From positions 39,146 to 103,145 of the forward strand of contig CAVDMV010000003.1 of NCBI GenBank assembly GCA_963610315.1: DNA of 64,000 bases. The letters are read 5' to 3'. Position 1 is the stretch's first letter. The number at the start of each line of letters is the position of its first letter. Both the position numbers and the translations under genes were made by a program. Origin of the DNA: Acutalibacteraceae bacterium (GTDB taxonomy: Bacteria; Bacillota_I; Bacilli_A; RFN20; CAG-449). Positions 13,196 to 57,482 of this stretch are shown here, one piece after another. The notes under the pieces were generated by a model. That model was given only the letters and a program-made list of their open reading frames with translations. It did not search any database and was not told where the DNA came from.

Positions 13196-13241
13196 TTTAA
13201 TAACCTCCATAATATTTTTTTAAAATTAATCTACTTATTTT

Positions 13242-19343: not shown

Positions 19344-20579
19344 TTATTCTTCAACTAATGTTGCGAGTTTAGCTAAACGTTTAATTGTTTCAACTACTGA
19401 AATAACTGCTTGTTTAGAATCATAAACTTCACCTGCAAGAACTAAACGTGATTGCTTGTTGTAGAGTTTGAATTGATATTTAGCATTCTTATCTTTATAA
19501 ACATAGAATGAACCTTCATAAACTACAGTTCTAAATTTTTCTAATGCTTCTTTACATGAATCTTTTGATTGGTAAACTAAAGAAGTTGCAATTACTCTCT
19601 TATTAGCCGCGATTAATTGATAAACAAATCCATCGCCTTCTTCTTTAATAATATAAGTACCAGTATTTTCTTGTTCAATTTCAAATTCAACTTTTTCTAC
19701 TTCTGAATGATCTGCATCTTCGCTATCATCGACAACAATGTTTTCACTCTTTGCCCAACGTTTGTAAGATTCAATCGCATTTGTTGCGCTTGCTTTAGTT
19801 GAATAGTTCGCGGAAGTCGCTAAACATCTTCCTTGAGGAGTCATAACTCTAAATGAGAATAAACCATGTTTATCTTCAACAACATCACAACGAGATGTAT
19901 CAAGATTCTTCTTTAATGTTTCAATACCAGTTCTAACTGATTTTTCAGATGTGTATGGTTCAGAAACAATAATTACTTCACCATTAGATGCTTTTAATTT
20001 ATAACGATAATTTGGTCCTTCAGAAACGATGACATATTTACCTTTTACAGTATGTTCTTTTTCTTCATCTTCGTCATAAGATTCTTTTTCATCAGTTTTA
20101 ACTGCTGCAACAGGTGCTTCTTCTTCAGTCACTTCTTCTGCAGCTTCTTCTTTTTCTTCAGAAGGTTCTTCTACTTCTTCAGTTGGAGTTTCTTCAGTTG
20201 GTTCTTCAACTGGTGCTACTTCTTCAGTTGGTTCTTCTGTTTCTTTTGATTCTTCTACTTCTTCAGCTGGTGTTTCTTCTTCAGTAGCTTCTTCAGTTAC
20301 ATCTTCTTTTGCTTCTTCAGCTTCCTCTTCTGCAGCTTCTTCTTCAACTGCTTCAACAGGAGATTCTTCTGCAGCAGGTTCTTCAGCAGGTTCTTCTACT
20401 GGAGCTTCTTCTTTTGTTTCTTCAGTTTCTAAAGATTTTTCATAAGCTTTGCCTTTTTTTCTAACGACTACGCATAGAATAACAAGTAATACTAGGAAGA
20501 CCGCCGCACATACTGCAAATAAAATAACAAATTTGCTAGAAACGGTATTCGCTAATAAATTAATGAGATTACATTTCAT
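19344..20579 (-). CDS. membrane-anchored protein with acidic Glu-rich linker and four DUF1508 (YegP-like) repeats
   Basis: N-terminal TM helix; about 130 aa E/A/P/T-rich low-complexity region; C-terminal repeats (YRYKLKASNGEVIIVSEPYTSEKSVRTGIETL etc.) match the YegP pattern. Confidence 0.7.
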   Translation of the reverse strand: MKCNLINLLANTVSSKFVILFAVCAAVFLVLLVILCVVVRKKGKAYEKSLETEETKEEAPVEEPAEEPAAEESPVEAVEEEAAEEEAEEAKEDVTEEATEEETPAEEVEESKETEEPTEEVAPVEEPTEETPTEEVEEPSEEKEEAAEEVTEEEAPVAAVKTDEKESYDEDEEKEHTVKGKYVIVSEGPNYRYKLKASNGEVIIVSEPYTSEKSVRTGIETLKKNLDTSRCDVVEDKHGLFSFRVMTPQGRCLATSANYSTKASATNAIESYKRWAKSENIVVDDSEDADHSEVEKVEFEIEQENTGTYIIKEEGDGFVYQLIAANKRVIATSLVYQSKDSCKEALEKFRTVVYEGSFYVYKDKNAKYQFKLYNKQSRLVLAGEVYDSKQAVISVVETIKRLAKLATLVEE

Positions 20580-26018: not shown

Positions 26019-26720
26019 TTAACGATATCTAATCACTGCTTTAGAAGAAATAGAACCATTATTTTTTAAGATGTTAAAGACGATTTGATAATCATCTTCT
26101 TGATAGATAGTAGTTATCTCTTCATCTTCAATAACTTCAGAAATAAAATTAATTTCAAATTCATAAATATCTAAAGAAAGATAATATTCACTCTTTAATG
26201 CATTTAAATAATATCGAACATAACTAACATTATTTAAATGATGTGAATAATCAATATCACTTGAATAGACTTTATGAATTAATTCATTTTGTCTTTCAAT
26301 TTGAGGAATACGAGAATAAATTCTAATTTTTGGAAGTAAACTATCTTCTTTTAAAGAGAGAAATTCTAAAGAAACAGATTCTCTAGTAACATAATTAATT
26401 CCACATATCTCTGTAAACGAAGTAACTACTTCTTCATCATTTAATATAACATTAGTTTCTAAAATAAATGACATGAGATTAACTTTAACTAAATGTACTT
26501 TAAAATCTAAGATATCATTTAATTTAGGCATCTTCTCTATCACAAGTTTATTTCTTAATACTACTAAAATTATGTTATATTGAGGCTTTAAATATTCATT
26601 ATTTAAATGATGTTCTTCTAAATATTCAGTCGTTACATCTTCAATTAAAGAACTTAAAGAGATGAGATTTAATTTAAAAGAAGCATCAACTTCAGAATAT
26701 CTTACTTTAATCTTTTCCAT
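26019..26720 (-). CDS. acyl-ACP thioesterase (FatA-like, double hotdog)
   Basis: N-terminal KVRYSEVD pattern typical of acyl-ACP thioesterases; about 235 aa; start at MEKIK after GGAGG. Confidence 0.65.
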   Translation of the reverse strand: MEKIKVRYSEVDASFKLNLISLSSLIEDVTTEYLEEHHLNNEYLKPQYNIILVVLRNKLVIEKMPKLNDILDFKVHLVKVNLMSFILETNVILNDEEVVTSFTEICGINYVTRESVSLEFLSLKEDSLLPKIRIYSRIPQIERQNELIHKVYSSDIDYSHHLNNVSYVRYYLNALKSEYYLSLDIYEFEINFISEVIEDEEITTIYQEDDYQIVFNILKNNGSISSKAVIRYR

Positions 26721-27423
26721 TAATACCTCCAACTAAACTCTTCTTAATATTAATTTCATTTGAATTAATAATATGTTTTTCATTGTTATTACCTATCACA
26801 ACTAAATAGCCTTCTTTAGTAAAATCAATTACTTTATAAAGATTACCTTCATGAATAATTTCTCTATTCATAATGATATTGTTATTGCGATAAATAACCA
26901 TTAATTCATCAATATTCTTATTTAATAAGTAATCAAATTCAATTAGAACTTCATCTAACAAAGTTAATTTACTAATATTAATAAATTCATTAATTCCAGT
27001 TGCATTAAATTCTTTATTAGCTTTTAAATTGATTCCAATACCGAGAACGATATATTCTAGTTCACTTCCTAAATAAGAAGATTCAGCAAGAATCCCACAT
27101 ATTTTTTGGTCATCTACGTATATATCATTAGGCCATTTAATAAGTGCGTTAATACCATGTTTTCTTAAAACATTCATAATAACTAAAGAAGAAATAATTT
27201 CATAACGAGCGTCTTCTTTAAAAATAAATGAAAATGGTAAGCAATTAGATGAATCCCAAGTATGAGTCATTCTTCCTTTTCCTGCAGTTTGATTATCAGT
27301 ATAAAGAACACTCCTAGAGGTTAACTCAGAGGAGTGTTCTTTTAAATACGTATTTGTAGAATTAACTTCATCGATATAATAAAGATCAAAAGAAGCGACT
27401 TTTTTCTTAAATACGATATCCAT
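26707..27423 (-). CDS. birA: biotin-[acetyl-CoA-carboxylase] ligase, catalytic-only (no HTH domain)
   Basis: QTAGKGRMTHTW motif matches the BirA GRGRRGR biotin-binding loop; 238 aa. Confidence 0.75.
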   Translation of the reverse strand: MDIVFKKKVASFDLYYIDEVNSTNTYLKEHSSELTSRSVLYTDNQTAGKGRMTHTWDSSNCLPFSFIFKEDARYEIISSLVIMNVLRKHGINALIKWPNDIYVDDQKICGILAESSYLGSELEYIVLGIGINLKANKEFNATGINEFINISKLTLLDEVLIEFDYLLNKNIDELMVIYRNNNIIMNREIIHEGNLYKVIDFTKEGYLVVIGNNNEKHIINSNEINIKKSLVGGINGKD

Positions 27424-27424
27424 C

Positions 27425-28330
27425 TTATTTGCCTAATTTTGAAACTATATCTAAATAGCCATTGTAGTCAGAGACATTATAAATAGTCGCGGTAGGACTA
27501 ATCTTTCTAATAAAGCCTGTTAAAGCTTTGCCAGGACCGATTTCAACAAATGTATCAACACCTTGTTCAAGAAGATATTTAACTGAATCTTCAAAATAAA
27601 CGCTGTGACAGATTTGATCTTTTAAAATGTCATTTAATGGACGAGTTTCTTCTTTACCTGATACGTTATAAACAATTCTATAAGTAGGAGTAGCAGGAAC
27701 AAAACGATCTAAAACTTCTTTTAATTCGATTGAAGCATTATTTAATAATGATGAATGGAAAGCACCTGAAACATTTAATGGAATCGCTCTCCTAGCTTTT
27801 GCTTCTAAAAGGAGTTCACAAGCTTTATCAACTGCTTCATTAGTACCAGTAATAACAATTTGTCCTGGACAGTTATAGTTTGCAATTTCTACTACACCAG
27901 TATCAACTTTCTTTAAAGTTTCTAAGATAGTATTTCGATCTAAACCGATAATAGCGGCCATCTTTGTTGTTCCTAAAGGTAAAGCATTTTGCATAATTCT
28001 ACCTCTATTAGAAATAATTTCGATGGCATCTTCAATCTTCCAAGCATTCGCAAAAGCTAAAGCACTATATTCACCTAAAGAAAGTCCGCAGGCAAATTCA
28101 GGAACAATTCCTTTTTCTTCTAATGCCTTTGCAATTGCAAAAGAAGTAAGTAACATTGCTTTTTGAGCGTAAGCAGTTTGATTTAATAATTCATTTTCGT
28201 TGAAACATAAGTCTTTAATTTCAGGGAAAGCATCATAAATCTTTTTTACTAAATCTAAATTTTCATAAAAGTCTTTACCCATTCCAATATATTGGGCGCC
28301 TTGACCTGCAAAACAAAATGCAATTTTCAT
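27425..28330 (-). CDS. fabD: malonyl-CoA:ACP transacylase
   Basis: AGQGAQ and GLSLGEYSA active-site motifs; 301 aa. Confidence 0.9.
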   Translation of the reverse strand: MKIAFCFAGQGAQYIGMGKDFYENLDLVKKIYDAFPEIKDLCFNENELLNQTAYAQKAMLLTSFAIAKALEEKGIVPEFACGLSLGEYSALAFANAWKIEDAIEIISNRGRIMQNALPLGTTKMAAIIGLDRNTILETLKKVDTGVVEIANYNCPGQIVITGTNEAVDKACELLLEAKARRAIPLNVSGAFHSSLLNNASIELKEVLDRFVPATPTYRIVYNVSGKEETRPLNDILKDQICHSVYFEDSVKYLLEQGVDTFVEIGPGKALTGFIRKISPTATIYNVSDYNGYLDIVSKLGK

Positions 28331-28342
28331 AAGTCAACCTTT

Positions 28343-29257
28343 CTAACCGATATTACGGTATTTGTTAAATCTGTTATTTAATAATTCGTCTTTACTTAAT
28401 GCAGTTAATTCATCAAGTTTTGCGACGAGTTTTTCTTTAATTTGATTACCATATTCTTTAGAAATATAAGTAACACCTCCAAGAGGTTCTTTAATTACTT
28501 CATCGATAATTTTAAGTTCTAATAAATCCTTACTAGTCATCTTCATAATTTCGCATACATCTTCAACTTTAACGCTGTTTTTAAATAAAATTGAAGCAAA
28601 TCCTTCAGGTGAAAGAACTGAATATATCGCGTTTTCAAACATGTAAATATAATCTGAAACAGTGAGAGCTAACGCGCCTCCTGATCCTCCTTCAGATAGA
28701 ACAACTGCGATAACTGGTACTTTTAATGAAGCAAATTCCATGAGGTTATTTGCAATCGCGCGAGCTTGGCCTCTTTCTTCTGCCCCTTTTCCTGGATATG
28801 CGCCAGAAGTATCAACAATAGTAATAATAGGGCGATTAAATTTTTCTGCTTGATGCGCGAGTCTTAAAGTTTTTCTAAAACCTTCTGGAGAAGTCATACC
28901 AAAGTTTCTTTTAATATTTTCTTTAGTATTTGTTCCTTTAGCTTCAGCTAGAACTGTAACAGGATATTTACCTAGATAACCAACACCAGCAATAATTGCT
29001 GCATCATCACCATAATATTGATCACCGTGTAATTCATAAAAATCATCAATTAAAGCATTAATTAAAGCTTTCGCTTTAACTCTTTTTTCACTACGAGCGA
29101 TATTTACTCTATCATAAGCACTTAAAGAAGAATAAGTTTCAATTAATAAATTCTTTAATTCTTGCTTTAATTCTTCATATTCTTTATCTTGTGGATCAAG
29201 GTTAACAATTTGCTCTTTTAATTGAGCTATTTTTAATTCATTCTCTTCAAGTATCAT
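28343..29257 (-). CDS. accA: acetyl-CoA carboxylase carboxyltransferase alpha subunit
   Basis: Crotonase-fold CT domain; 304 aa; gene order accD-accA. Confidence 0.9.
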   Translation of the reverse strand: MILEENELKIAQLKEQIVNLDPQDKEYEELKQELKNLLIETYSSLSAYDRVNIARSEKRVKAKALINALIDDFYELHGDQYYGDDAAIIAGVGYLGKYPVTVLAEAKGTNTKENIKRNFGMTSPEGFRKTLRLAHQAEKFNRPIITIVDTSGAYPGKGAEERGQARAIANNLMEFASLKVPVIAVVLSEGGSGGALALTVSDYIYMFENAIYSVLSPEGFASILFKNSVKVEDVCEIMKMTSKDLLELKIIDEVIKEPLGGVTYISKEYGNQIKEKLVAKLDELTALSKDELLNNRFNKYRNIG

Positions 29258-29258
29258 A

Positions 29259-30134
29259 TTATCTATAATTATGAAGTTTTAATAGCTTATAAAGCGTAAC
29301 CTTCATATCCTTTCTTTCAACTATATTATCAATATAACCTTTATCTAAAAGGAATTCTGATGTTTGGAAATCTTTAGGAAGAACTTCTTTAATTGTTGAT
29401 TCAATAACTCTTCTTCCAGCAAAACCAATTAAAGTTTTAGGTTCAGCAAGAGTAATATCGGCAAGAGAAGCAAAAGACGCGCTTACTCCGCCGGTAGTAG
29501 GATCAGTTAAGACTGCAATATAAAGTTCTTTTTCTCTTAATTTACCAACTGCTTGGCTAGTTTTAGCCATTTGGAATAAAGAGATAATCCCTTCTTGCAT
29601 TCTTGCTCCTCCAGAACAAGTAAATAAAATTAAAGGTAAGTGTTCTTTAAGCGCTTTTTCACACATTAATGTAACTTTTTCGCCGCAGACAGAGCCCATA
29701 CTTCCCATCATAAAGAAACTATCCATAACGCCAACTAAGCAAGAGATACCGTTAATTTTACCTTTGACGCAGACAATTGATTCATCAATTTCTGAAGTTT
29801 CTTTAGCCTTAGACAATTTTTCTTCATAAGTAGGGAAATCTAAATGCTTTTCTTCAAGATTAGAAAATATTTCTTCATAACCTTCATCCATAACTTGTTT
29901 TAAGCGTTCTTTAGCGTGTAAACGCGCATGATAACCGCAGTTAGGACATACATATAAAGCATCTTGATATGCTTCAGAAAGTAAAGTTTTTTGACAAGAT
30001 GGGCATTTAACCATTAATCCATCTGGAACTTTAATTGGAGTAGTTTTTTCATCACGTTTTCTAAATTGAAGATCCGCTAGAACGGAATTAAATTCTTTAA
30101 TTTCTTCTTTTCTTTTATCGAATATATCTGGCAT
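29259..30134 (-). CDS. accD: acetyl-CoA carboxylase carboxyltransferase beta subunit
   Basis: N-terminal zinc finger CPSC...CPNCGYH; CT domain; 291 aa. Confidence 0.9.
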   Translation of the reverse strand: MPDIFDKRKEEIKEFNSVLADLQFRKRDEKTTPIKVPDGLMVKCPSCQKTLLSEAYQDALYVCPNCGYHARLHAKERLKQVMDEGYEEIFSNLEEKHLDFPTYEEKLSKAKETSEIDESIVCVKGKINGISCLVGVMDSFFMMGSMGSVCGEKVTLMCEKALKEHLPLILFTCSGGARMQEGIISLFQMAKTSQAVGKLREKELYIAVLTDPTTGGVSASFASLADITLAEPKTLIGFAGRRVIESTIKEVLPKDFQTSEFLLDKGYIDNIVERKDMKVTLYKLLKLHNYR

Positions 30135-31482
30135 TTTGTTCTAGCTCCTTTATCGTTTCATCAACAAAGCCAGTATTAAAGTTTCCTAAAATATACTTTG
30201 GATGATGCATAATCATATAATGGAATTCAGTTGTAGTTGGTACTCCATCAATTAATAATTCTTCTAACGCGACTCTCATTTTTCTAATTGCTTCAAGACG
30301 GTTTTTACCTAATACAACTAATTTTAAAATCATTGAGTCGTAATAAGGAGGAATGACGTATCCTGGGAAAACATGAGTATCTACTCTTACACCATTTCCA
30401 CCAGGTAAATGTAAGAAATTAATTTTACCTGCTTGAGGTCTAAAATCATTTGATACATCTTCAGCATTAATTCTACATTCAATCGCGAAACCATTGAGGT
30501 GAATATCTTCTTGTTTATAAGGAAGTTTCATACCTGCCGCAATCTTAATCATTAATTTAATAATATCTACGCCAGTTACCATTTCTGTAACTGAATGTTC
30601 TACTTGAACTCGAGTATTCATTTCGATGAAATAGAAATTTTCTTTGTCATCAACTAAGAATTCAATAGTACCGACTGAATCATAATTAACAAATTCAACT
30701 GCTTTTAAAGCATTTTCATATAATTTATTCTTTAATTTTTGTGAAATAGATTGGCATGGAGCTTCTTCAAGCATCTTTTGTTTTCTTCTTTGCATTGAGC
30801 AATTTCTTTCGAAAAGATGAATGTAATGGCCGAACTTATCACCAACAACTTGAACTTCGACATGCTTTGGATTTTGTACTAATTTTTCAATATATAATTC
30901 ATCGTTTGCGAAGAATTTCTTTGCTTCTTCTTTAGCTTCTTTATACATATCCGCGAATTTAGCTTCGGATTCGACCATTCGAATACCTTTTCCTCCTCCG
31001 CCGGCACTTGCTTTAATTAATACTGGGAAGCCAATTTCTTTTGCGATGGCTAACCCTTCATCTAACTTAACTGCTTTATAAGAGCCTGGAACAATTTGAA
31101 CACCAGCTTGACGCATTGATTTAATTGCTTCAGATTTATTACCCATTAATTCCATGACTTCTGGACGAGGTCCAATCCAAGTGATACCACATTTTTCAAC
31201 CATTTTGGCAAATAATGGGTTTTCGCTTAAAAAGCCAAAACCAGGATGAATCGCATCACATCCTGTTACACATGCTGCTGAAAGAATTCTTTCCATGTTT
31301 AAATATGAATTGGTAGAATTAGCTTCACCAATACATATTGCTTCATCCGCGATTTTAACATGTAAAGAAGATTTATCCGCGCTTGAATAAATCGCGACTG
31401 TCGCAATTCCCATTTCTTTACAAGCACGAATAATTCTAACTGCAATTTCTCCTCTATTTGCGATTAATACTTTCTTAAACAT
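30115..31482 (-). CDS. accC: biotin carboxylase
   Basis: ATP-grasp; MFKKVLIANRGEIAVRIIRACKEMGI N-terminus near-identical to AccC; 455 aa. Confidence 0.93.
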   Translation of the reverse strand: MFKKVLIANRGEIAVRIIRACKEMGIATVAIYSSADKSSLHVKIADEAICIGEANSTNSYLNMERILSAACVTGCDAIHPGFGFLSENPLFAKMVEKCGITWIGPRPEVMELMGNKSEAIKSMRQAGVQIVPGSYKAVKLDEGLAIAKEIGFPVLIKASAGGGGKGIRMVESEAKFADMYKEAKEEAKKFFANDELYIEKLVQNPKHVEVQVVGDKFGHYIHLFERNCSMQRRKQKMLEEAPCQSISQKLKNKLYENALKAVEFVNYDSVGTIEFLVDDKENFYFIEMNTRVQVEHSVTEMVTGVDIIKLMIKIAAGMKLPYKQEDIHLNGFAIECRINAEDVSNDFRPQAGKINFLHLPGGNGVRVDTHVFPGYVIPPYYDSMILKLVVLGKNRLEAIRKMRVALEELLIDGVPTTTEFHYMIMHHPKYILGNFNTGFVDETIKELEQNARYIR

Positions 31483-31484
31483 AA

Positions 31485-31919
31485 TTAATCACCTATTAAG
31501 AATAATTTTTGATCAAATTCAATTACTCCACCTTCACTTGCATAAATTTCTTTAACAGTTCCGTCTTTTGGTGCAGTAATTTCATTCATAACTTTCATTG
31601 CTTCAATGATACAAAGTTTATCACCTTTTTTAACTTTAGAACCAACTTCAACAAATGGTTTAGCATCTGGATATTGAGCTTGGTGATAAGTACCAACTAA
31701 TGGTGATTTAACAATGTCTTTTTCATTGATAACTTCTTCTTCAGAAGTTGAAGGAGTTACACTTGAAGAATGTTCATTAGGAACTACAAATCCTACTTGA
31801 TTTTCACTCTTTGTTAATTTGATTTTCATATCATCAACTTCAATATCTAAAGATGTAATATTTGCTTTTTCAAACATCTTAACAATCTTTTCAATTTCTT
31901 CAATTTTCATATTAAGCAT
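31485..31919 (-). CDS. accB: biotin carboxyl carrier protein
   Basis: Biotinylation motif EAMKVMN; 144 aa. Confidence 0.88.
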   Translation of the reverse strand: MLNMKIEEIEKIVKMFEKANITSLDIEVDDMKIKLTKSENQVGFVVPNEHSSSVTPSTSEEEVINEKDIVKSPLVGTYHQAQYPDAKPFVEVGSKVKKGDKLCIIEAMKVMNEITAPKDGTVKEIYASEGGVIEFDQKLFLIGD

Positions 31920-32148
31920 TTAACTCCTTTTCTTTTCTTGTAACTAATTTAACTACATCATCAACCGTGATTAATTGTTCCATTTCTTCATATTCGATTT
32001 GAATGGAGAATGCAGTTTCAAGTTCAAGAATCATTTCAACTGCATAAAGGCTATCAATGCCTAAATCTTTTAATTTCGCATCTTTCGTGATTTTTTCTTC
32101 ATCAACATTCGCGCATTCAATTAATAATTGTTTAATTTTTTCAAACAT
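31912..32148 (-). CDS. acyl carrier protein (copy 1)
   Basis: 78 aa, acidic, phosphopantetheine site GIDSL. Confidence 0.8.
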   Translation of the reverse strand: MFEKIKQLLIECANVDEEKITKDAKLKDLGIDSLYAVEMILELETAFSIQIEYEEMEQLITVDDVVKLVTRKEKELNA

Positions 32149-32172: not shown

Positions 32173-32913
32173 TTATTTTTTGCCTTTTTCTCTTTCATTA
32201 GTCCAAAAGTTATTTAAGAAAACTTTATAAGCACTAGTAGTAAAAGGTGGTTTTAATAATTTAATTTTGGTTTCTTCACTTAAAGAACCATTTTCGATAA
32301 ATTCTTGACCAGCGAGAATAAACTTTTCTAAGAATTTATCAATTTTATTTTGATTATTTAATTCGACTAAAGTCTTCATTTGAGGAACTAAAATCGCTAA
32401 ATAATTATTTTGACCGCAGATACAATCATATTGTTTTAATAAAGACGTATAAGCTAAATCAGTTTCAGTGTACGCACAAGTAGAAATAACGATAAATTTT
32501 CTATTTGGACGAGGATTTCTAATACCGTGGAAAGACTTTCCATCGCGAGGAGCGATTTGTCCTTCGTAAGTACACATCATCGATAAAAGTCGATCAGTAA
32601 GTACCTTATTAATTCCAGGCATTGAGAAGAAATATAAAGGATAAGAATTAATAACGATATCCGCGTTATCTAATTTTTCTTTAACAGTATTTACATCATC
32701 ATTTTTAATGACGCATTCTCCTGCCGTTCTTCCCCAGCAAGATAAGCAACCTAAACAAGGGGTAATTTTTAAATCAGATACGTTAATAATTTCTATATCT
32801 AAATCATTATTTACATTTAATCCTTTTAAGAAAGCATTAGTTACTACCATTGTAGAACTTCTTTCTTTTTTAGGACTACCATTTAAGACGACAACTTTTT
32901 TCTTAGTTTCCAT
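32173..32913 (-). CDS. iron-sulfur flavoprotein-like NAD(P)H-dependent FMN reductase (flavodoxin fold)
   Basis: VVVLNGSPKK flavodoxin-like N-terminus; compact Cys motif CLGCLSCWGRTAGEC (CX2CX2CX7C) as in Isf proteins; 246 aa; embedded in the FAS operon. Confidence 0.6.
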   Translation of the reverse strand: METKKKVVVLNGSPKKERSSTMVVTNAFLKGLNVNNDLDIEIINVSDLKITPCLGCLSCWGRTAGECVIKNDDVNTVKEKLDNADIVINSYPLYFFSMPGINKVLTDRLLSMMCTYEGQIAPRDGKSFHGIRNPRPNRKFIVISTCAYTETDLAYTSLLKQYDCICGQNNYLAILVPQMKTLVELNNQNKIDKFLEKFILAGQEFIENGSLSEETKIKLLKPPFTTSAYKVFLNNFWTNEREKGKK

Positions 32914-33373
32914 AGATTTGTTCTTTTTTAACAGCAGTAAATGTCATTGTTCCTTTTGAATAGATGACATCATTTACTTTAACAACTGCATCAAAAGTTG
33001 TTAATGGTCCCATTACCTTAGATTTTTTTACATTAATAATTAATGTATCACCAGGAATAACAGGTTTAATAAATTTGAAATTGTCTACTTTTAATAATAC
33101 GTAAATAAGATTTGCATCAGAACCATCAGATTCAATTACGAGTGAACATAATTGAGCACATGATTCAATAATTAATACTCCAGGCATGATTGGATTATCA
33201 GGGAAATGACCCATAAAATAAGGTTCATTTACTGAAACGTTCTTTAATCCAGTCGCTTCAACATTTGGAGTAAGTTCTAAGACCTTTTCAATCATTTGGA
33301 AAGGAGGTCTTTGTTTAATTCTTTTATTTATTTCATTAATGTTCATCATATTATAAAGATAATCCTCCATCAA
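32903..33373 (-). CDS. fabZ: 3-hydroxyacyl-ACP dehydratase
   Basis: Hotdog fold with HFPDNPIMPGVL motif; 156 aa. Confidence 0.85.
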   Translation of the reverse strand: MMEDYLYNMMNINEINKRIKQRPPFQMIEKVLELTPNVEATGLKNVSVNEPYFMGHFPDNPIMPGVLIIESCAQLCSLVIESDGSDANLIYVLLKVDNFKFIKPVIPGDTLIINVKKSKVMGPLTTFDAVVKVNDVIYSKGTMTFTAVKKEQIYGN

Positions 33374-34082
33374 TTGTAATTACTTGTCCAGTAATGTAGC
33401 TTGCTTCATCACTAGCTAAGAAAGAAACTAACGCCGCGATATCTTCAACAACACCTAATCTATGAAGAGGAATGTTCTTTAAATATTCTTCTTTTTTATC
33501 TTCTGGGATATGATCTAACATTTCTGTTTGGATAAATCCAGGAGCGACAGCATTAACTCTAATTCCATAAGGAGAAAGTTCTTTCGCTAAAGTTTGAGTC
33601 ATTGAGTTAACTGCACCTTTAGTTGATGAATATACGCTTTGTCCAGGTAAAGCAAATTTACCTGAGACAGAAGACATATTGATGATGACACCTTTTTTCT
33701 TACGAAGCATTTTTAAAGCTGCTTGTTGAGCACAATAGAAATATCCTTTAACATTTAAATCATAACATGCATCAAGATTTTCTTTTGTCATCATGAGTAA
33801 TAATTCATCTCTAACGATACCAGCATTATTGACTAAAACATCAATTTGTCCGTATGTTTTAGCGATTTCTTTCATCATTTTGCTCGCTTCTTCAAATTTA
33901 GAAACATCAGCTTTATAGATAATTCCATCTCCTCCATTAGCCTTAATTTCATCTAATGTCTTAAGAGCGGATTCATCGCTTCTAGAATAATTAACAACAA
34001 CAAAATAGCCATCCTTAGCAAGTCTAATTGCGCATCCTTTACCGATGCCCTTACTTGCGCCTGTAACAATTGCAACTTTCAT
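33351..34082 (-). CDS. fabG: 3-oxoacyl-ACP reductase (SDR)
   Basis: TGASKGIG cofactor motif, YSSTK catalytic tetrad; 243 aa. Confidence 0.88.
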   Translation of the reverse strand: MKVAIVTGASKGIGKGCAIRLAKDGYFVVVNYSRSDESALKTLDEIKANGGDGIIYKADVSKFEEASKMMKEIAKTYGQIDVLVNNAGIVRDELLLMMTKENLDACYDLNVKGYFYCAQQAALKMLRKKKGVIINMSSVSGKFALPGQSVYSSTKGAVNSMTQTLAKELSPYGIRVNAVAPGFIQTEMLDHIPEDKKEEYLKNIPLHRLGVVEDIAALVSFLASDEASYITGQVITIDGGLSL

Positions 34083-36508: not shown

Positions 36509-36615
36509 AAAATTCTCCTTTTTTTAAAATTATTCAACCTCTAAATCTAAGATTTAGGGCATATTTTCTTAAAGTCAAAAAAATAGTTGCAAGAATAACT
36601 TGCAACTACCTAAAA

Positions 36616-36861
36616 CTACTTATTTGCGATAATATATGCTGCAAGAGTATCAATGCTTCTGAAGTGTTCTCTAGCAACACCAGTCATTGATAAACCAAAT
36701 TCATCATCAATAAATGAGATAATTTCAATTGAGTCGATTGAGTCTAAACCAATTGAAGTACCTTCAAATAATGGAGTATCGAAATTTAATACACTTGGTT
36801 CAACTCCTAAGTTTTCACAAATGAAATCTTTTAATTTTTGTTTTACTTCTACTTCGTTCAT
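36616..36861 (-). CDS. acyl carrier protein (copy 2)
   Basis: 81 aa; phosphopantetheine attachment site GLDSIDSIE. Confidence 0.7.
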   Translation of the reverse strand: MNEVEVKQKLKDFICENLGVEPSVLNFDTPLFEGTSIGLDSIDSIEIISFIDDEFGLSMTGVAREHFRSIDTLAAYIIANK

Positions 36862-37021: not shown

Positions 37022-37333
37022 TTAAGAAATTATTACAATGCTTGTTACTAAGTCTCCTTCATGAGAAATAGAGATACTTATTTCAGGATGATTTAAAACA
37101 TAAGGCTGACCAGAAGGATGTTTTAAAATTGAATATTCAAGATAAAGAGGATCTTGAGTCGCTTTAAAAATTGCTTCTTTAGACGCCCAACGAACAGCTA
37201 AAAAAGTGGACTTAGAATCTTCATTTAATTCATTAAATTCTTCTAACTCCACTTTCGTTAGTATTCGATTTATAAAATTTTCTTTTTTATTTTCAAATCT
37301 AGATATTCTTGTTAAATCAATTCCTACTTGCAT
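37022..37333 (-). CDS. acpS: holo-ACP synthase (4'-phosphopantetheinyl transferase)
   Basis: MQVGIDLTRISRF N-terminus and KEAIFKA motif typical of AcpS; 103 aa. Confidence 0.8.
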   Translation of the reverse strand: MQVGIDLTRISRFENKKENFINRILTKVELEEFNELNEDSKSTFLAVRWASKEAIFKATQDPLYLEYSILKHPSGQPYVLNHPEISISISHEGDLVTSIVIIS

Positions 37334-37375: not shown

Positions 37376-39034
37376 TTATCTAGTTGAATTAACAAATGAG
37401 TCGATATCAACTTTTGTTGTATCGATAGTTGATATTTGTTTTCTTAGTTTTAATACATAAGAAGGTGAAACAGATAATTCATCAATACCTAATGAAACAA
37501 AGAAAGGTAATAATTTTTCATCACGTGCTAATTCACCACATATACCAACAGGAATATTTTTCTTATGGCCATTTTCGATTGTTAATTTGATAAGTCTAAG
37601 AATAGCCTTATGATGTGGATTAAATGTTTTATCTAATAATGGATTAACGCGGTCGATTGCTAAAGTATATTGAGATAAATCATTCGTGCCGATTGAGAAG
37701 AAGTCGACGTGTTCTGCTAGTACATCTGACATAATTGCCGCGGCAGGAGTTTCAATCATAATACCGATTTTCATATCAGGATTAAACTTTTCACCACGAG
37801 AAGTAAGGTTATTTTTCGCTAAAGCACACATTTCTTTAACAAATTCGACTTCGCTTAATGAGATAATCATCGGAATCATAATTGCTAAATTACCATATGC
37901 TGATGCACGATATAAGGCAGTTAATTGGTCTAAGAACATCGCAGGACGATCTTTACAAATTCTAATTGAACGATATCCTAAAGCTGGATTTTCTTCTTCA
38001 GGTAATTCGAAATAATCAACTTTTTTATCCGCGCCGATATCTAAAGTTCTAATAATAACTTCTTTCCCCTTCATTGCTTCAACAACTTTTTTATAATGAA
38101 CAAATTGTTCTTCTTCAGTTGGGTAAGTTTTACTATCTAAATAGATGAATTCAGATCTAAATAAACCGATACCTTCTCCATCATTTTTAATAACATTATC
38201 AACTTCATAACTAGAAGCAATATTAGAATAAATCTTTAATTTTTTACCATCTAATGTTGTCGTTTCTTTGCCTCTTAGAAAGGAAAGTTCTTTTATATCA
38301 TTAAGATAAGATTCTTTGATTTTTGAATATTTAGTAATATCTTTTGAAGTTGGATCAATAATTAGTTTTCCTTTAAGGCCATCAATAATCGCAAATTTGC
38401 CGTTTAAAGAAGCGTCAACATTAAAATCATCAATTGCACAGATAGAAGGAATTTCAAGCATTCTAGTAAGAATGGAAACGTGAGAATTAATGCTTCCTTT
38501 AACTAAAATTAAGCCGATGAGAAGATTCTTATCAAACTTCATAAGTTCACTTGAAGGTAAGTCATCACAGATGATAATTGAAGGTTCTTTTAATAAAGTT
38601 AAATCTTCTTTTTTAGTTAAGACATCAATAATTTTATTACCGACTTCAAGAACATCTCTCGCTCTTTCTTTCATGTAAGCATCGTCCATAGTTTCAAACA
38701 TACTGGATAATTGTTTACTTGCTTCTTTAACCGCCGATTCTGCCGTTAATTTATTGTTTATACCTTCTTTAACTAAATCTTCAAAATCGAGATCTTCCGC
38801 CATAAGTTTATGGGTAAGGAAGAGTTGAGCCTCTTCCTCCCCTAAACGAATTAATGTGTCTTGATAAAGTTTTTCAAATGAAACAATGGTTTTTGCACGA
38901 GCTTCAATGAAACGTTCAGTTTCTTTTTCTTCACCTAAGAATTCATTTTTAGTTTCAGTTTTTATATCTTGGTAAACAACTAGTTTTCCAAGTGCGTATC
39001 CATCAAAGATACGTTTAGATGAATATTCTTTCAT
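37376..39034 (-). CDS. ptsI: phosphoenolpyruvate-protein phosphotransferase (PTS enzyme I)
   Basis: 552 aa; PEP-utilizing enzyme domains including the phospho-His region GSINSHVSIL. Confidence 0.88.
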   Translation of the reverse strand: MKEYSSKRIFDGYALGKLVVYQDIKTETKNEFLGEEKETERFIEARAKTIVSFEKLYQDTLIRLGEEEAQLFLTHKLMAEDLDFEDLVKEGINNKLTAESAVKEASKQLSSMFETMDDAYMKERARDVLEVGNKIIDVLTKKEDLTLLKEPSIIICDDLPSSELMKFDKNLLIGLILVKGSINSHVSILTRMLEIPSICAIDDFNVDASLNGKFAIIDGLKGKLIIDPTSKDITKYSKIKESYLNDIKELSFLRGKETTTLDGKKLKIYSNIASSYEVDNVIKNDGEGIGLFRSEFIYLDSKTYPTEEEQFVHYKKVVEAMKGKEVIIRTLDIGADKKVDYFELPEEENPALGYRSIRICKDRPAMFLDQLTALYRASAYGNLAIMIPMIISLSEVEFVKEMCALAKNNLTSRGEKFNPDMKIGIMIETPAAAIMSDVLAEHVDFFSIGTNDLSQYTLAIDRVNPLLDKTFNPHHKAILRLIKLTIENGHKKNIPVGICGELARDEKLLPFFVSLGIDELSVSPSYVLKLRKQISTIDTTKVDIDSFVNSTR

Positions 39035-39036
39035 AA

Positions 39037-39294
39037 TTATAAATTAGCTTCGAATACTTCTTGAAGAGCTTTTGCTGCTTCTTCTTCATCCGCACCTTCA
39101 ACTTCAATTAAAACTTCTTCATTAGATTTTACGCATAATCCCATTACACCAAAGATTCTCTTTAAATCAGCTTTTTTACCTTTGTTTGTAATAGAAACTG
39201 TAGAAGTATATTTTTTTGCTTCTGCAACGACAATTCCTGCAGGACGTGCATGAATGCCTTCTTTATCTTTAATTACATATGTGAATGATTTCAT
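39037..39294 (-). CDS. ptsH: phosphocarrier protein HPr
   Basis: 85 aa; active-site GIHARPAG (His15). Confidence 0.9.
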   Translation of the reverse strand: MKSFTYVIKDKEGIHARPAGIVVAEAKKYTSTVSITNKGKKADLKRIFGVMGLCVKSNEEVLIEVEGADEEEAAKALQEVFEANL

Positions 39295-39296
39295 AT

Positions 39297-41300
39297 TTAT
39301 TTTCTCTTTCCGATTCTAAGGCCTTTGAACTTACCAAGTTCTGGGTTTTCGACATCTTTCTTTAATAAGCTTAACATAAATGCTGTGATAATTGTACCAA
39401 TCGCTAAAGCAAGGAGATAGAAATACCATTTACCAACAACTGCGAATACGAAGATACCACCATGAGGTGCCATTAATGTACAACCGAATACAACACTTAA
39501 TAAACCTGCAACTGCTGCACCAACAACAGATGAAGAAATAACTCTTAATGGATCTTTTGCTGCATATGGAATTGCTCCTTCAGTAATAAAGCCAGCACCC
39601 ATAACATAGTTAACCATTGCTTCTTTTCTTTCTTCTTTTGTCCATTTTTGTGGGAATAATGTCGCGGATAATGCAATTCCTAGAGGAGGAACCATACCGC
39701 CAATCATAACTGCCGCCATCATTTGATAACAATAAGCTTGATATGCTGCATCAGTAGAACCAGCTGCTGCAGTTAACATTGCTGTACCGAAGACATATGC
39801 CGCTTTATTAATAGGGCCACCCATATCGATAGCCATCATTGCTGCAAGTAACGCACCAAGTAAAATTGTTAAATTGTTTTTACCTAACCAGTTTAAAGCA
39901 TTAGAGATACCAATGTTAATATATGTAAATGGAGTATTAATAACAAACATTACTAATCCAATAAGCGCAACACCAAAGACTGGATAAATTAACATAGGTT
40001 TAATACCATCAAGCGCTTTTGGCATTTTTTCTGTACATTTTTCTAATAACTTAATGATATAACCTGCAATAAACCCTGCCGCGACTGCTCCTAAGAAACC
40101 AGCAGTTGATCCTGTATCATTACCGGAAATTTGTACTCCGATTGAAAATGAAGATACGGTAGCAAGAGATCCTCCAACAAAGCCAATCGCTAAACCTGGT
40201 CTACCAGCAATAGAATAAGCGATAAATGCCGCTAAAACTGGTAACATGAAGTTAAATGCAACTCCTCCAGTAGTTTTTAAGAACCAAGATACTGGAGTAC
40301 CTGTACCGAAATTACCATCAGTAGGAACACCAGCGAAAGTATCAATCATAAATGCTAAAGCAATTAAGATACCACCACCGATAACGAATGGTAACATGTG
40401 AGAAACACCATTCATTAAGTGTTTATAAATTTGATGCCAAATAGAACCATCTGACTTAGTATCTTTTTTAGTTTGCTTATTATCTGAATGATATACAGGA
40501 GCTTCGTTATTAACAGCTTTTTTAATTAATTCTTTAGGTTCATGGATACCTTTACTTACGGTAGAAATAACGACGTGTTTTCCATCAAATCTATCCATTT
40601 CAACATTGACGTCTGCCGCGACTACAATGCCCTTTGCATGAGCGATTTCTTCATCTGTTAATAAGTTTTTAACGCCACCTGAACCATTAGTTTCAACTTT
40701 ACATGAATAGCCAAGTTCTTCAGCCGCTTTCTTAATTGATTCTTCTGCCATATATGTATGAGCGATACCATTAGGGCAACCTGTAACACCTAAGATTTCA
40801 GGATAATCGACACTAGGAGAAGCATTTTGTTCTTCTTCAATTCTATCTTTTTCCGCTTCATCAATGACTTTTAAGAATTCTTCTTTAGATGATGCGTTTA
40901 CTAAATTATTTTTAAAATTTTCATCCATTAATAAGTTAGATAATCTCGCAAGAACTTCTAAGTGAACATTATCTTCACTATTAGGCGCCGCGATTAAGAA
41001 TAATAAATTAACTTTTTCACCATCTAATGAATCATAATCAACACCATCTTTTAATACCATAGCCGCTAATGCAGGTTTAGTGACAACATCAGATTTACAA
41101 TGAGGAATTGCAATTCCTTCTCCGATACCAGTTGTTGATTCTTCTTCACGATGATAAACACCAGCTTTGTAAGTTTCTACATCTTTAATGACACCACTTT
41201 TTGAAATTAATGAGACAGCTTTTTCGATAACGTCATGTTTATCAGTAGCTGAAGCATTAATATCAATTGTTTCACTTGATAATAAATCTGTAATTTTCAT
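39297..41300 (-). CDS. fruA: PTS fructose-specific EIIABC
   Basis: 667 aa; N-terminal IIA(Fru) domain, IIB, C-terminal multi-TM IIC; adjacent fruK/fruR. Confidence 0.88.
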   Translation of the reverse strand: MKITDLLSSETIDINASATDKHDVIEKAVSLISKSGVIKDVETYKAGVYHREEESTTGIGEGIAIPHCKSDVVTKPALAAMVLKDGVDYDSLDGEKVNLLFLIAAPNSEDNVHLEVLARLSNLLMDENFKNNLVNASSKEEFLKVIDEAEKDRIEEEQNASPSVDYPEILGVTGCPNGIAHTYMAEESIKKAAEELGYSCKVETNGSGGVKNLLTDEEIAHAKGIVVAADVNVEMDRFDGKHVVISTVSKGIHEPKELIKKAVNNEAPVYHSDNKQTKKDTKSDGSIWHQIYKHLMNGVSHMLPFVIGGGILIALAFMIDTFAGVPTDGNFGTGTPVSWFLKTTGGVAFNFMLPVLAAFIAYSIAGRPGLAIGFVGGSLATVSSFSIGVQISGNDTGSTAGFLGAVAAGFIAGYIIKLLEKCTEKMPKALDGIKPMLIYPVFGVALIGLVMFVINTPFTYINIGISNALNWLGKNNLTILLGALLAAMMAIDMGGPINKAAYVFGTAMLTAAAGSTDAAYQAYCYQMMAAVMIGGMVPPLGIALSATLFPQKWTKEERKEAMVNYVMGAGFITEGAIPYAAKDPLRVISSSVVGAAVAGLLSVVFGCTLMAPHGGIFVFAVVGKWYFYLLALAIGTIITAFMLSLLKKDVENPELGKFKGLRIGKRK

Positions 41301-41312
41301 GTTACCCTCCTT

Positions 41313-42215
41313 CTATTTTATCAATTGTTCTAATTTTTCAACTTTTTCTAATGTGGCTAAATTTTCTGAAAAAGCTGAAGCACTTCCGCATGCAATTCCT
41401 CTCTTGAATGCTTTATATATATCATCGCTACGATAGTATTCATCAATAAATCCTGCAACTAATGAATCACCTGCGCCAACGGTGTTAATAACTTTTCCTT
41501 TTGGACAATCAGTTAATTTGTATTCTCCGTTACCTCTAACTAGTAATGCTCCGCTTCCACCAAGAGAAACGATGACATTTTGTGCTCCTAAAGAAATTAA
41601 TTTTTTTGCGTTTTCCACTAATTCTTCTTCATTACTAATTTTAACATTGAATAGTTCTTCTAATTCTTCCTTATTAGGTTTAACTAATACAGGATGATAT
41701 GGCAAAGTTTTAAGTAAGGTATCTTTTGTTGTATCAACAATTAATTGAACATTTTGATTTTTAATTCTTTCAAGAATTCTTTCATAAGTGTTGCTTGGTA
41801 AAGTATTTGGGATTGCTCCAGAAATTACTAAGACATCATTTGAAGTAAGATTAGTAAGTTTTTCAATTAATGTTTCAATATCTTGATCTTCAACTCTCGG
41901 TCCTTGACCATTGATTGCAGTTTCAACCATACCTTTTATTTTTACATTAATTCTAGTATTACCATTTAAATGAACGAAATCACTTTCAATATTATGTGCT
42001 TTCATTTCATCTTCGATATACTTACCAATAAAGCCTCCGACAAAACCCATCGCAACAGATTTTGTTCCTAAGTTTGATAAAACTAATGAAACGTTTATTC
42101 CTTTGCCACCAGGAAGCATTGTTTCCTTCTTAGTTCTATTAATTGCACCAACTTCTAGTTTGTCTAAATCAACAATATAGTCAAGTGCAGGAGAAAATGT
42201 AACTGTATATATCAT
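41313..42215 (-). CDS. fruK: 1-phosphofructokinase (pfkB family)
   Basis: Ribokinase-like fold with GGKGIN and GAGDS motifs; 300 aa. Confidence 0.88.
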   Translation of the reverse strand: MIYTVTFSPALDYIVDLDKLEVGAINRTKKETMLPGGKGINVSLVLSNLGTKSVAMGFVGGFIGKYIEDEMKAHNIESDFVHLNGNTRINVKIKGMVETAINGQGPRVEDQDIETLIEKLTNLTSNDVLVISGAIPNTLPSNTYERILERIKNQNVQLIVDTTKDTLLKTLPYHPVLVKPNKEELEELFNVKISNEEELVENAKKLISLGAQNVIVSLGGSGALLVRGNGEYKLTDCPKGKVINTVGAGDSLVAGFIDEYYRSDDIYKAFKRGIACGSASAFSENLATLEKVEKLEQLIK

Positions 42216-42965
42216 CTATTTATTCACCTCCAATACATTTTCTTTTTTATATTCTTTATTTTTAATTTTGTCTGTTATTAATGTTGCTTCGTTAAAGGAA
42301 GCAAATTTAACACCTTGTTCAAAACCTAATTTACTATTATCTGCGATTACATAAGCTTTAATACTTCTATTAAGGGCGGTCTTTTTAATCATTGCTTCTT
42401 CATAATCAGGAGTAGTATAACCTTGTGATAATGAAATAGCGTTCGCTCCAAAGAAGCCTATATCAAATGTAAATCTTTTAATCGTTTCTACTGGGAAAGA
42501 ACCAACAAATGCATCAGTTGATAATTTAATTTCTCCACCAGTAACATAAACTTTATATTTTCTTTTAGTTAGTTTTTGAGCGATAGTCATTGAGTTAGTA
42601 ACAAAGATGTTGCCACTTGATTTTATATAATCACATAAGCAAGAAGTTGTTGTTCCAGCATCTATATAAACTAATGTATTATCCTTAATTAAAGAAGCAG
42701 CGTATTGAGCGATTGAATTCTTTTCATCAACATGGAGTGAAGCTTTTTCATTCATATTTAACTCTTTTAATGAAGTTTTATTATTTTGAATAGATTTTGC
42801 TCCACCATGAAGTCTAATAATTTTACCTTCTTTTTCAAGATGAACTAAATCGCCGCGGATTGTTGATTCGCTAGAAGAAGTTTTTTTCATTAATTCATGT
42901 AACGATACATATTCTTTTTCATTAAGTAAATCAAGTATCATTTGTAATCTTAAATTTTTAAGCAC
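42216..42965 (-). CDS. fruR: DeoR-family transcriptional repressor of the fructose operon
   Basis: N-terminal DeoR HTH plus C-terminal sugar-phosphate sensor domain; 249 aa. Confidence 0.85.
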   Translation of the reverse strand: MLKNLRLQMILDLLNEKEYVSLHELMKKTSSSESTIRGDLVHLEKEGKIIRLHGGAKSIQNNKTSLKELNMNEKASLHVDEKNSIAQYAASLIKDNTLVYIDAGTTTSCLCDYIKSSGNIFVTNSMTIAQKLTKRKYKVYVTGGEIKLSTDAFVGSFPVETIKRFTFDIGFFGANAISLSQGYTTPDYEEAMIKKTALNRSIKAYVIADNSKLGFEQGVKFASFNEATLITDKIKNKEYKKENVLEVNK

Positions 42966-46939: not shown

Positions 46940-47671
46940 TTATTTTAGAATATCATTATCATAAAATTTAATGCTTAAGACAGGCCATTTAATTTTAGAA
47001 TAATTTCTATCCCTACTATTAAGTTTACGGCCTGATGGTTGATAAATAAGTCCTCCAAAATGAATATTTTTATTATTTGGTTTTTCTTCTTTTAAAATCA
47101 TGTCATAAATTTGATCAGTATCTAATAAGAAGCCTTTTTCTGGATTACCATAATAAAAATAATCCATTGGTTCACGTTCTGGGTTATTGCCTGCAATAAC
47201 AGTATGATAAACAATTTTTTTAATAATTTCTTTATTAGAATTTAATTCTTCGTTAGCTTGAATAATATATTCACTATATTTTTCAATTATTTCATCTTTT
47301 GTTAATGGTTCACCATTGTTACCTAATTTTTTTGAAGCCCCAAAATGATAGAAAGAAATAATGTGCCGAGTTCTACTACTAACACCTATTTTCTTTAAGA
47401 ATTGAAAGAAATCATAAAAATATTCTTGGTGAATAGATGGATTACTTCCTGACTTAATTGAAACATTAATTCTTGATTTACGAACTTTAATTGTTATATC
47501 TGGTTTAGCTCTTCGATCATCAAAAGAATAAGCTTTTATTAAGTCATTATCTTCAACAAAAGAAAACATCCTCTTAATATTTTCTTTCCATAAAGGGCTT
47601 AAATCCTTATATTTTTTATTATTTAGAACATCTATAATGTCGAATTCATTTTTTTCTCCGATATTTGGCAT
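46940..47671 (-). CDS. hypothetical protein (243 aa), possible nuclease-like fold
   Basis: Complete ORF with RBS; no family recognised; weak PD-(D/E)xK-like spacing (KPDITIKVRK); lies between deoD and the tRNA remnants. Confidence 0.45.
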   Translation of the reverse strand: MPNIGEKNEFDIIDVLNNKKYKDLSPLWKENIKRMFSFVEDNDLIKAYSFDDRRAKPDITIKVRKSRINVSIKSGSNPSIHQEYFYDFFQFLKKIGVSSRTRHIISFYHFGASKKLGNNGEPLTKDEIIEKYSEYIIQANEELNSNKEIIKKIVYHTVIAGNNPEREPMDYFYYGNPEKGFLLDTDQIYDMILKEEKPNNKNIHFGGLIYQPSGRKLNSRDRNYSKIKWPVLSIKFYDNDILK

Positions 47672-57332: not shown

Positions 57333-57482
57333 AACTTTCCTCCATTTCTCAAATATTATAAGAAGAAGTCGGTTAAAAAACAATAAATAAAAAATACTCT
57401 CTTATTATTTTAAAAAAATAATATATTTCATTTTATTTCTTAATATTATATAATTAGTTTGTATTTCCAAGGAGGATTAACT

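Follow-up and report, generated by a model that had tools for sequence, protein, structure and literature searches.

A type II fatty acid synthesis (FAS) operon is encoded on the reverse strand of a 64,000-nucleotide stretch, hereafter the window, of contig CAVDMV010000003.1 (assembly GCA_963610315.1, Acutalibacteraceae bacterium). Between its fabZ gene and a gene for an acyl carrier protein (ACP) lies a gene for a 246-aa flavoprotein of flavodoxin-like fold. We propose, at about even chances, that this protein is a non-canonical enoyl-ACP reductase (ER) of an unusual type II fatty acid synthase. The organization of the operon, the features of the protein and the distribution of its relatives are presented below, and this proposal is then weighed against other possible roles.

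Organization of the fatty acid synthesis operon

In the direction of transcription, the operon comprises AcpS, an ACP (ACP2), a fusion of two ketosynthase (KS) domains, FabG, FabZ, the flavoprotein, another ACP (ACP1), AccB, AccC, AccD, AccA, FabD, BirA and an acyl-ACP thioesterase (Table 1). Counted from ACP2 to the thioesterase, the operon has 13 genes; the upstream AcpS would bring the number to 14. Genes overlap or are 0–24 nt apart, and no terminator-like site was found by pattern matching between the KS fusion and the thioesterase. Acetyl-CoA carboxylase (ACC), FabD, ACP, KS, ketoreductase (KR) and dehydratase (DH) are thus all present, with FabF and FabZ scoring above their equivalog cutoffs, as expected of FAS-grade enzymes. 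A preliminary description of the window, made from translations, had listed 13 genes with FabD, FabG, FabZ, KS, ACP and all ACC subunits, and both Pfam and NCBIfam agree with it. The flavoprotein is the sole member of the cluster without an assigned role.

The ATG of the flavoprotein gene (32911–32913) lies upstream of the fabZ stop codon (TAA, 32903–32905), so that the two genes overlap by 11 nt. This overlap, also noted in the preliminary description, was read directly from the sequence; the fabZ start chosen by gene callers is an internal ATG, which gives a product of 148 aa. Such an arrangement would couple translation of the flavoprotein to that of fabZ, the maker of its proposed substrate, and we count it in favour of the ER assignment.

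The two ACP genes of the operon are distinct, and the clusters of the Clostridia type described below retain just the first of them. The hairpin located between ACP2 and the KS fusion could act as an attenuator or as a means to overexpress the first ACP. A promoter scan was uninformative in DNA of 30% GC, giving 50 matches compared to 63.9 in shuffled sequence.

No FabI, FabK, FabL or FabV was recognized among the cluster genes by Pfam, NCBIfam or sequence probes, as the preliminary description had maintained. Likewise, no ER was found among 20 further open reading frames (ORFs) of the window, including every ORF of 230–420 aa outside the cluster, and in 80 other species no canonical ER was detected in flanks of 10 kb around the cluster. 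A FabK probe, validated by its match to PDB entry 2Z6I (E 1e-159), gave no tblastn match in 1.56 Mb of sequence composed of the window and 89 loci. In the same 1.56 Mb, tblastn with an unvalidated FabI probe detected one short-chain dehydrogenase/reductase (SDR) per source; the inspected matches are at the position of fabG, and in the window only fabG was matched. All-versus-all clustering of flanking ORFs disclosed 75 SDR ORFs in 73 loci, of which the 73 examined are FabG by best match, and it revealed no recurrent NMO, FabV or second SDR family. Neighbours recurring in this clustering are limited to TetR, PlsX, thioesterase, BioY, patatin and PlsC, together with unrelated genes. Full-text literature searches returned no description of an ER of flavodoxin fold, nor of the ER status of these taxa; fabK was named in passing, in KEGG style, in two places, of which just one, for L. 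eligens (see below), bears on a relevant species.

The KS fusion has two different halves. The N-terminal half is a complete FabF-type KS with Cys154 and two histidines, and this triad is present in 120 of 120 homologues. In the C-terminal half, the half-to-half alignment places Gln570 at the position of the catalytic cysteine (Gln in 116/120 homologues), and both histidines are missing. FabH was found neither in the cluster, according to Pfam and NCBIfam, nor within 10 kb of it in 80 species. Replacement of Cys by Gln is the hallmark of chain-length factors (CLF) and KSQ domains, which decarboxylate malonyl-ACP to prime synthesis in type II and modular polyketide synthases (PKSs). The fusion resembles the KS-CLF heterodimers and KSQ loading domains of PKSs in having Gln instead of the catalytic Cys in the second KS half, but differs from them in that both halves reside in one polypeptide, inside a primary fatty acid synthesis operon. 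By analogy, this suggests that the Gln-type half performs decarboxylative, FabH-independent priming of primary fatty acid synthesis, which would explain the absence of FabH. If the FabH gap is filled in this way, enoyl reduction is the only step left unfilled.

Sequence, predicted structure and relatives of the flavoprotein

The profile search proposed in the preliminary description yielded matches to FMN_red (PF03358; E 3.1e-14, 53.3 bits, cutoff 24) and Flavodoxin_2 (PF02525; E 1.6e-13, 51.3 bits, cutoff 27), both confined to residues 5–118. As both gathering scores are exceeded, the protein belongs by sequence to the flavin mononucleotide (FMN) reductase families of flavodoxin-like fold. 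No NCBIfam model came near its cutoff, and neither the NMO/TIM-barrel FMN domain (PF03060) nor an SDR match was found by Pfam or NCBIfam. The AlphaFold (AF2) model (pLDDT 88.9) shows an alpha/beta fold with a five-stranded flavodoxin-like core, followed by a helical C-terminal region at about residues 180–245. The C-terminal helical part, roughly 100 aa, is unmatched by the flavodoxin-fold models of Pfam. The long loop after strand 2, which carries the cysteine motif, is the part of the model with the lowest confidence.

Alignment of 38 homologues (54–68% identity) shows that C53, C56, C59 and C67 are invariant, as is C146, and the motif is carried by 143 of the 150 best family representatives. 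A 246-aa protein of flavodoxin fold with CX2CX2CX7C, as first described, is therefore confirmed by the ORF, by Pfam and by alignment. The four cysteines of this invariant motif may ligate a [4Fe-4S] cluster. In the same alignment, N11, G12, S13, P14, S19 and T21 are conserved in at least 90% of sequences, and residues 11–21 are, from what is known of the family, the probable FMN phosphate-binding loop. P92, L93, F96, M98, P99 and G100 are invariant (consensus PLYFFxMPG at 92–100); residues 90–100 align with FPLYWFSVPA of NQO2 and with the corresponding segment of the flavone reductase introduced below, and probably bind the isoalloxazine ring. GC content of the gene (0.294) matches that of the window (0.301) and of its neighbours; as this gives no hint of a recent insertion, horizontal transfer was set aside as an explanation. 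In public records, members of the family are annotated as “flavodoxin family protein” or “multimeric flavodoxin WrbA”, for example WP_195616506.1 in Lachnospira eligens.

The closest solved relative by sequence is 7D38, with E 2e-5 when the single sequence was searched and 7e-11 when the family profile was used. It is the flavone reductase (FLR) of Flavonifractor plautii (PDB 7D38-7D3B), an FMN-dependent ene-reductase with a WrbA-like fold and a C-terminal tail, in which hydride is proposed to pass from FMNH- to the beta-carbon of the flavone enone (PMC7862272). The reaction of FLR is reversible and was assayed with an external flavin reductase (PMC7862272). FLR shares with the flavoprotein an FMN-type flavodoxin/WrbA-like fold, an extra C-terminal part and a CxxCxxC...C segment after strand 2. 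The alignment joins query residues 33–113 with FLR residues 25–109, spanning the Cys motif and the second FMN loop. Since FLR reduces a C=C bond conjugated to a carbonyl, and reduction of enoyl-ACP is the same chemistry, this relative bears on the proposed ER role. We also observed that FLR residues ~44–65 form a CTGCTAC-x11-C segment aligned with the Cys motif of the family. Cysteines or an Fe-S cluster are not mentioned in the FLR paper (PMC7862272); the natural electron input of FLR may also run through a cluster, lost on purification.

The preliminary description had called the protein Isf-type. Iron-sulfur flavoproteins (Isf) of Methanosarcina thermophila and other anaerobes have a flavodoxin-like fold, FMN and a compact motif, CX2CX2CX4-7C or CX2CX2CX5-7C, thought to ligate [4Fe-4S] (PMC3164229). 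Fold and motif are indeed common to both, and FMN is predicted in the flavoprotein. However, the family profile matched no Isf-named chain in PDB at E<=10, and the flavoprotein has an additional helical C-terminal part. Membership in Isf thus finds no support by sequence, and the likeness retained here is one of motif and fold.

In the Firmicutes, the ER usual in fab clusters is FabK (enoyl-ACP reductase II). The reaction proposed for the flavoprotein and its cofactor, FMN, are the same as in FabK, but the folds are unrelated, as FabK belongs to the NMO family and is a TIM barrel; the two share no sequence similarity, and the FabK probe gave no match. By fold, the protein is matched best by NAD(P)H:quinone oxidoreductases and azoreductases, an order different from that by sequence, in which FLR comes first; the fold is also that of FMN reductases such as SsuE and EmoB. 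NQO1/NQO2, AzoR and MmNQO (4R81) are 10–19% identical to the flavoprotein and have no linkage to lipid or ACP genes, and 3U7I, the best azoreductase match shown, has no aligned counterpart of the four-cysteine motif in the family consensus.

Conservation of the linkage and the wider family

A genome scan with one genome per species revealed 440 genomes with a relative of the flavoprotein, and the best 80 of these 440 loci were examined. In all 80 (50–98% identity), the flavoprotein gene is located inside the same FAS cluster and is co-directional with it. FabZ is present in 77 of these loci, FabG in 76, and the KS fusion in 73; missing partners coincide with short contigs or with loci cut near a contig end.

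Two gene orders can be distinguished. Type A, seen in Acholeplasmatales and in Anaeroplasma, with A. bactoclasticum ATCC 27112 (L017) as a cultured example, reads ACP, KSKS, FabG, FabZ, flavoprotein, ACP, AccBCDA, FabD, BirA. Type B, found in Clostridia including L. eligens (L025) and Eubacterium species, reads ACP, KSKS, FabG, FabZ, FabD, AccD, AccA, flavoprotein, followed by PlsX and DegV or by a thioesterase. The FAS-linked cluster therefore spans two bacterial classes and two gene orders, and in relatives it is linked to PlsX, DegV, PlsC, BioY and thioesterase. At one locus (L088, 15428–18114), a TldD/PmbA pair is inserted between FabD and AccD, while the flavoprotein and thioesterase are kept at the cluster end; the locus lies on a 1.69-Mb contig of an abundant Clostridia lineage related to CAG:882. 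Even a family member at 41% identity still closes a type B cluster, and in the neighbour-joining tree the FAS-linked flavoproteins make up one clade, down to this identity.

Four records (L008, L032, L035 and L010) carry the low-GC cluster of the Mollicutes type under unrelated titles, namely Azospirillum sp. CAG:239, Desulfovibrio piger, Bacteroides uniformis and Lachnospiraceae bacterium. They appear to be mislabelled bins. The proteins of L008 and L010 are 94–98% identical to that of the window.

A profile search through 1.84 billion representative proteins returned 197 clusters with E<=1e-30; at E<=1e-3 their number rises to about 10,500. Domain scans of 20 long family members were used to find fusion partners. 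Dozens of representatives (among P0139-P0261), 350–715 aa long, combine a flavoprotein carrying the Cys motif with an SCP2 lipid-binding domain, C-terminal in most of them and N-terminal in P0258 and P0260. The loci located for two of the SCP2 fusions lie on contigs too short to show their gene context. In P0124 the partner is a GDSL hydrolase. These fusions of relatives point to lipophilic substrates. An apparent fusion with AccA (P0123) starts at profile position 68, is probably a frameshift or a gene-call merge, and was not used as evidence.

Sister clades (34–40% identity) have a different gene environment, in which the flavoprotein is accompanied by TetR, a PlsC-type acyltransferase, an AMP-dependent ligase, ACP and a GDSL hydrolase, and in some cases also by patatin. 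No KS, KR or DH genes were found in these paralogue clusters (L090 5562–9403, L095 848–5541, L093 6421–10997). To judge from its gene content, this second conserved cluster looks like a module for scavenging of exogenous lipids that retains the flavoprotein. In another sister-clade context a paralogue lies between patatin genes, and one paralogue adjoins a gene with a faint DUF2229 match. Taken together, members of the family are linked to ACP and acyl-lipid metabolism, though not always to elongation enzymes.

Outside the FAS operon, a fructose phosphotransferase system operon is located directly upstream of it on the same strand (37376–42965); Pfam matches on identical contigs identify a DeoR regulator, 1-phosphofructokinase (PfkB), a fused EIIA-IIB-IIC, HPr and Enzyme I. 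The ORF at 19344–20579 (reverse strand) codes for 411 aa and contains four DUF1508 repeats. Five ORFs of 243–447 aa have no Pfam match at E<=1e-3: four on the reverse strand (7231–8574, 11870–13210, 46940–47671 and 53141–54421) and one on the forward strand (58523–59611). A 990-aa ORF (54411–57383, reverse strand) lies adjacent.

Table 1. Position and supporting evidence of features of the FAS operon and of the flavoprotein, in coordinates of the window
Feature	Position	Strand	Evidence
Flavoprotein gene, 246 aa, candidate enoyl-ACP reductase	32173..32913	-	ORF with ATG start; Pfam; AF2 model
Motif C53-x2-C56-x2-C59-x7-C67, TPCLGCLSCWGRTAGEC (TPC53LGC56LSC59WGRTAGEC67), putative [4Fe-4S] ligands, loop after beta-strand 2	32713..32757	-	Alignment
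Residues 11-21, NGSPKKERSST, probable FMN phosphate-binding loop	32851..32883	-	Conservation; inside FMN_red match
Residues 90-100, SYPLYFFSMPG, probable isoalloxazine-binding loop	32614..32646	-	Conservation, alignment
fabZ, 3-hydroxyacyl-ACP dehydratase	32903..33373	-	NF000582 132.7 bits, cutoff 113
fabG, 3-oxoacyl-ACP reductase, only SDR in cluster	33351..34082	-	TIGR01830 284.9 bits
KS-KS fusion, 803 aa	34097..36508	-	fabF TIGR03150 519.8 bits, cutoff 493.75
Terminator-like hairpin, 13 bp stem and T run, between ACP2 and KS fusion	36581..36611	-	Pattern match only
ACP2, first acyl carrier protein, upstream of KS fusion	36616..36861	-	PP-binding E 1.5e-9; seen in 65/80 loci
acpS, holo-ACP synthase	37022..37333	-	PF01648 E 3.4e-15
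ACP1, second acyl carrier protein, 24 nt downstream of flavoprotein gene	31912..32148	-	PP-binding E 5.6e-11 and NCBIfam ACP models
accB, accC, accD, accA, four acetyl-CoA carboxylase subunits	28343..31919	-	Precomputed Pfam matches on identical contigs; translations
fabD, malonyl-CoA:ACP transacylase	27425..28330	-	PF00698 E 5.4e-27
birA (biotin ligase) and acyl-ACP thioesterase, operon end	26019..27423	-	PF03099, PF20791, PF01643

Proposed role of the flavoprotein and alternatives

The proposal that the flavoprotein is the ER of this synthase is based on three lines of evidence. By elimination, the only unassigned gene of the cluster is matched with the only missing step. The gene has stayed linked to FAS genes in two bacterial classes and through several rearrangements. 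Finally, the protein is by its sequence an FMN enzyme, and its nearest characterized relative is a reductase of C=C bonds conjugated to a carbonyl.

According to this proposal, acetyl-CoA carboxylase, FabD, two ACPs and the fused ketosynthase, all encoded in the operon, would be joined by a priming activity of the Gln-bearing KS half, which, judging by the Cys-to-Gln hallmark, would decarboxylate malonyl-ACP and replace FabH. FabG and FabZ, both present, would then yield trans-2-enoyl-ACP. The flavoprotein would hold FMN in its flavodoxin-like core, and reduced FMN would donate hydride to C3 of the enoyl thioester; protonation at C2 would give saturated acyl-ACP, in the way proposed for FLR acting on the flavone enone. 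More speculatively, the four cysteines might hold a [4Fe-4S] cluster through which ferredoxin or flavodoxin supplies FMN with electrons. Alternatively, NAD(P)H might reduce FMN directly in a ping-pong manner, as in azoreductases and NQO1.

Several observations weigh against an ER role. The search for a canonical ER covered the window and locus flanks of up to 10 kb, and a FabK or FabI may be encoded elsewhere in the genome. In the type B arrangement accB and accC are located outside the cluster, which shows that FAS genes are dispersed there. Similarity to FLR is limited to about 80 N-terminal residues, the N-terminal third; the C-terminal tail of FLR, with its substrate-activating Thr279, is unaligned, and homology of the FLR type does not extend over the full length. 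An elongation-cycle reductase has no obvious role in the paralogue clusters that are free of KS, KR and DH, and retention of paralogues where a ligase replaces de novo synthesis suggests that part of the family acts on acyl-ACP in some other way. In addition, KEGG “fabK” is listed among genes of L. eligens metagenome-assembled genomes, with no fabH listed (PMC11958714); the cluster described here appears to be the sole fab set mentioned for this species in that paper. The idea of a candidate non-canonical ER, already put forward in the preliminary description, is thus strengthened by linkage in 80/80 loci, by the lack of another ER in the cluster and by the relationship to FLR, and weakened by the KS/KR/DH-free paralogues and the KEGG assignment. 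Because of the reach of the ER search, the listed “fabK”, the type B accB and accC, the paralogues in ligase clusters and the confinement of FLR homology to the N-terminal third, we put our confidence in the ER assignment no higher than about evenly balanced.

Some of the same observations favour a different role, in which a canonical ER encoded elsewhere performs the reduction in the elongation cycle and the flavoprotein is another redox modifier of acyl-ACP or acyl lipids. It could be a FabX-like dehydrogenase/isomerase that introduces a double bond for anaerobic synthesis of unsaturated fatty acids, or it could act on scavenged fatty acids and reduce their activated double bonds. Helicobacter pylori FabX, an acyl-ACP dehydrogenase/isomerase with FMN and [4Fe-4S] on a FabK fold, counts in favour of such a role, and the cluster contains no FabA, FabM or FabN for unsaturated fatty acids. 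The location of the gene at the exit end of type B clusters, beside PlsX or thioesterase, agrees with it, as do the reversibility of FLR, the “fabK” of L. eligens and paralogues that adjoin ACP, AMP-dependent ligase, PlsC, patatin and GDSL hydrolase, with no KS, KR or DH. However, enzymes for unsaturated fatty acids are usually sporadic, whereas this gene occurs in 80/80 clusters, including those of reduced-genome Mollicutes-like bacteria; the KS-free contexts belong to sister clades outside the FAS-linked one, and no canonical ER was found in the 1.56 Mb around the clusters. We regard this role as unlikely, though it is the most probable of the alternatives. We find it rather improbable that the flavoprotein is an Isf-like electron-transfer or flavin-reductase partner, passing electrons from ferredoxin or NAD(P)H to another enzyme of the lipid pathway, for instance an ER encoded separately or an anaerobic enzyme that modifies plasmalogens or lipids. 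The compact Cys motif, the one ascribed to [4Fe-4S] ligation in Isf, the fold shared with SsuE and EmoB, the external flavin reductase used in assays of FLR, and the paralogue beside the faint DUF2229 match would all be compatible with such a partner. On the other hand, no candidate acceptor enzyme is conserved alongside in the 80 loci, no Isf chain was matched by sequence, and relatives fused to SCP2 domains or a GDSL hydrolase suggest that the protein itself binds a lipid substrate.

Best fold matches to quinone oxidoreductases and azoreductases, together with the public annotation as a flavodoxin family protein or WrbA, could also describe a generic quinone, azo or nitro reductase of the stress-enzyme type that is merely co-transcribed with FAS genes. 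Its presence in the operon in 80/80 cases, in two classes and two gene orders and with overlapping start and stop codons, the monophyly of the FAS-linked clade and the lipid linkage of relatives throughout make this explanation very unlikely. We give hardly any credence to a pathway of the type II PKS kind (KS-CLF, KR, DH) whose product is a polyene and in which an ER is not required, with the flavoprotein as a tailoring enzyme. A KS with a Gln-type partner and the lack of an ER do resemble highly reducing type II PKS and aryl-polyene systems, and FabZ has a weak ApeI-like match (0.0014). Nevertheless, the operon holds all ACC subunits, BirA, FabD, AcpS and an acyl-ACP thioesterase, relatives add PlsX, DegV, PlsC and BioY, and FabF and FabZ pass equivalog cutoffs; furthermore, the cluster is apparently the only fab set mentioned for L. 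eligens, and it is present in Acholeplasmatales with small genomes.

Returning to the ER assignment, the fold of the flavoprotein is known; what has gone unrecognized is its strict conservation at one place in an operon of primary metabolism, in anaerobes that are abundant in gut and rumen. We tentatively suggest, with somewhat less confidence than in the ER assignment itself, a wider reading in which the protein represents a new ER class, with a flavodoxin-fold FMN domain and a [4Fe-4S] cluster drawing on ferredoxin instead of, or besides, NAD(P)H. With a KS-KSQ fusion taking the place of FabH, the two would mark out a distinct variant of FAS II in hundreds of anaerobic gut and rumen species, among them L. 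eligens, other Lachnospiraceae, Anaeroplasma and Acholeplasmatales. ER sets the pace of bacterial fatty acid synthesis, and no other step of it is targeted more by drugs. Triclosan, isoniazid, the FabI inhibitors afabicin and fabimycin, and FabK inhibitors being developed against C. difficile and F. nucleatum are all directed at ER, and the ER isoform of a bacterium largely determines whether a given drug kills it. If the ER assignment is true, the flavoprotein would be a new structural class of this enzyme, with a fold unrelated to FabI, FabL and FabV (SDR) and to FabK (TIM barrel), and its hosts are predicted to be intrinsically insensitive to inhibitors of FabI and FabK, which bears on the design of microbiome-sparing antibiotics. 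Metabolic reconstruction of these genomes shows an apparent gap, which such an ER would also close. The KS-KSQ fusion, for its part, is predicted to provide a FabH-independent start of primary fatty acid synthesis, and, if the Fe-S cluster is real, lipid synthesis would be tied to the ferredoxin pool of these anaerobes.

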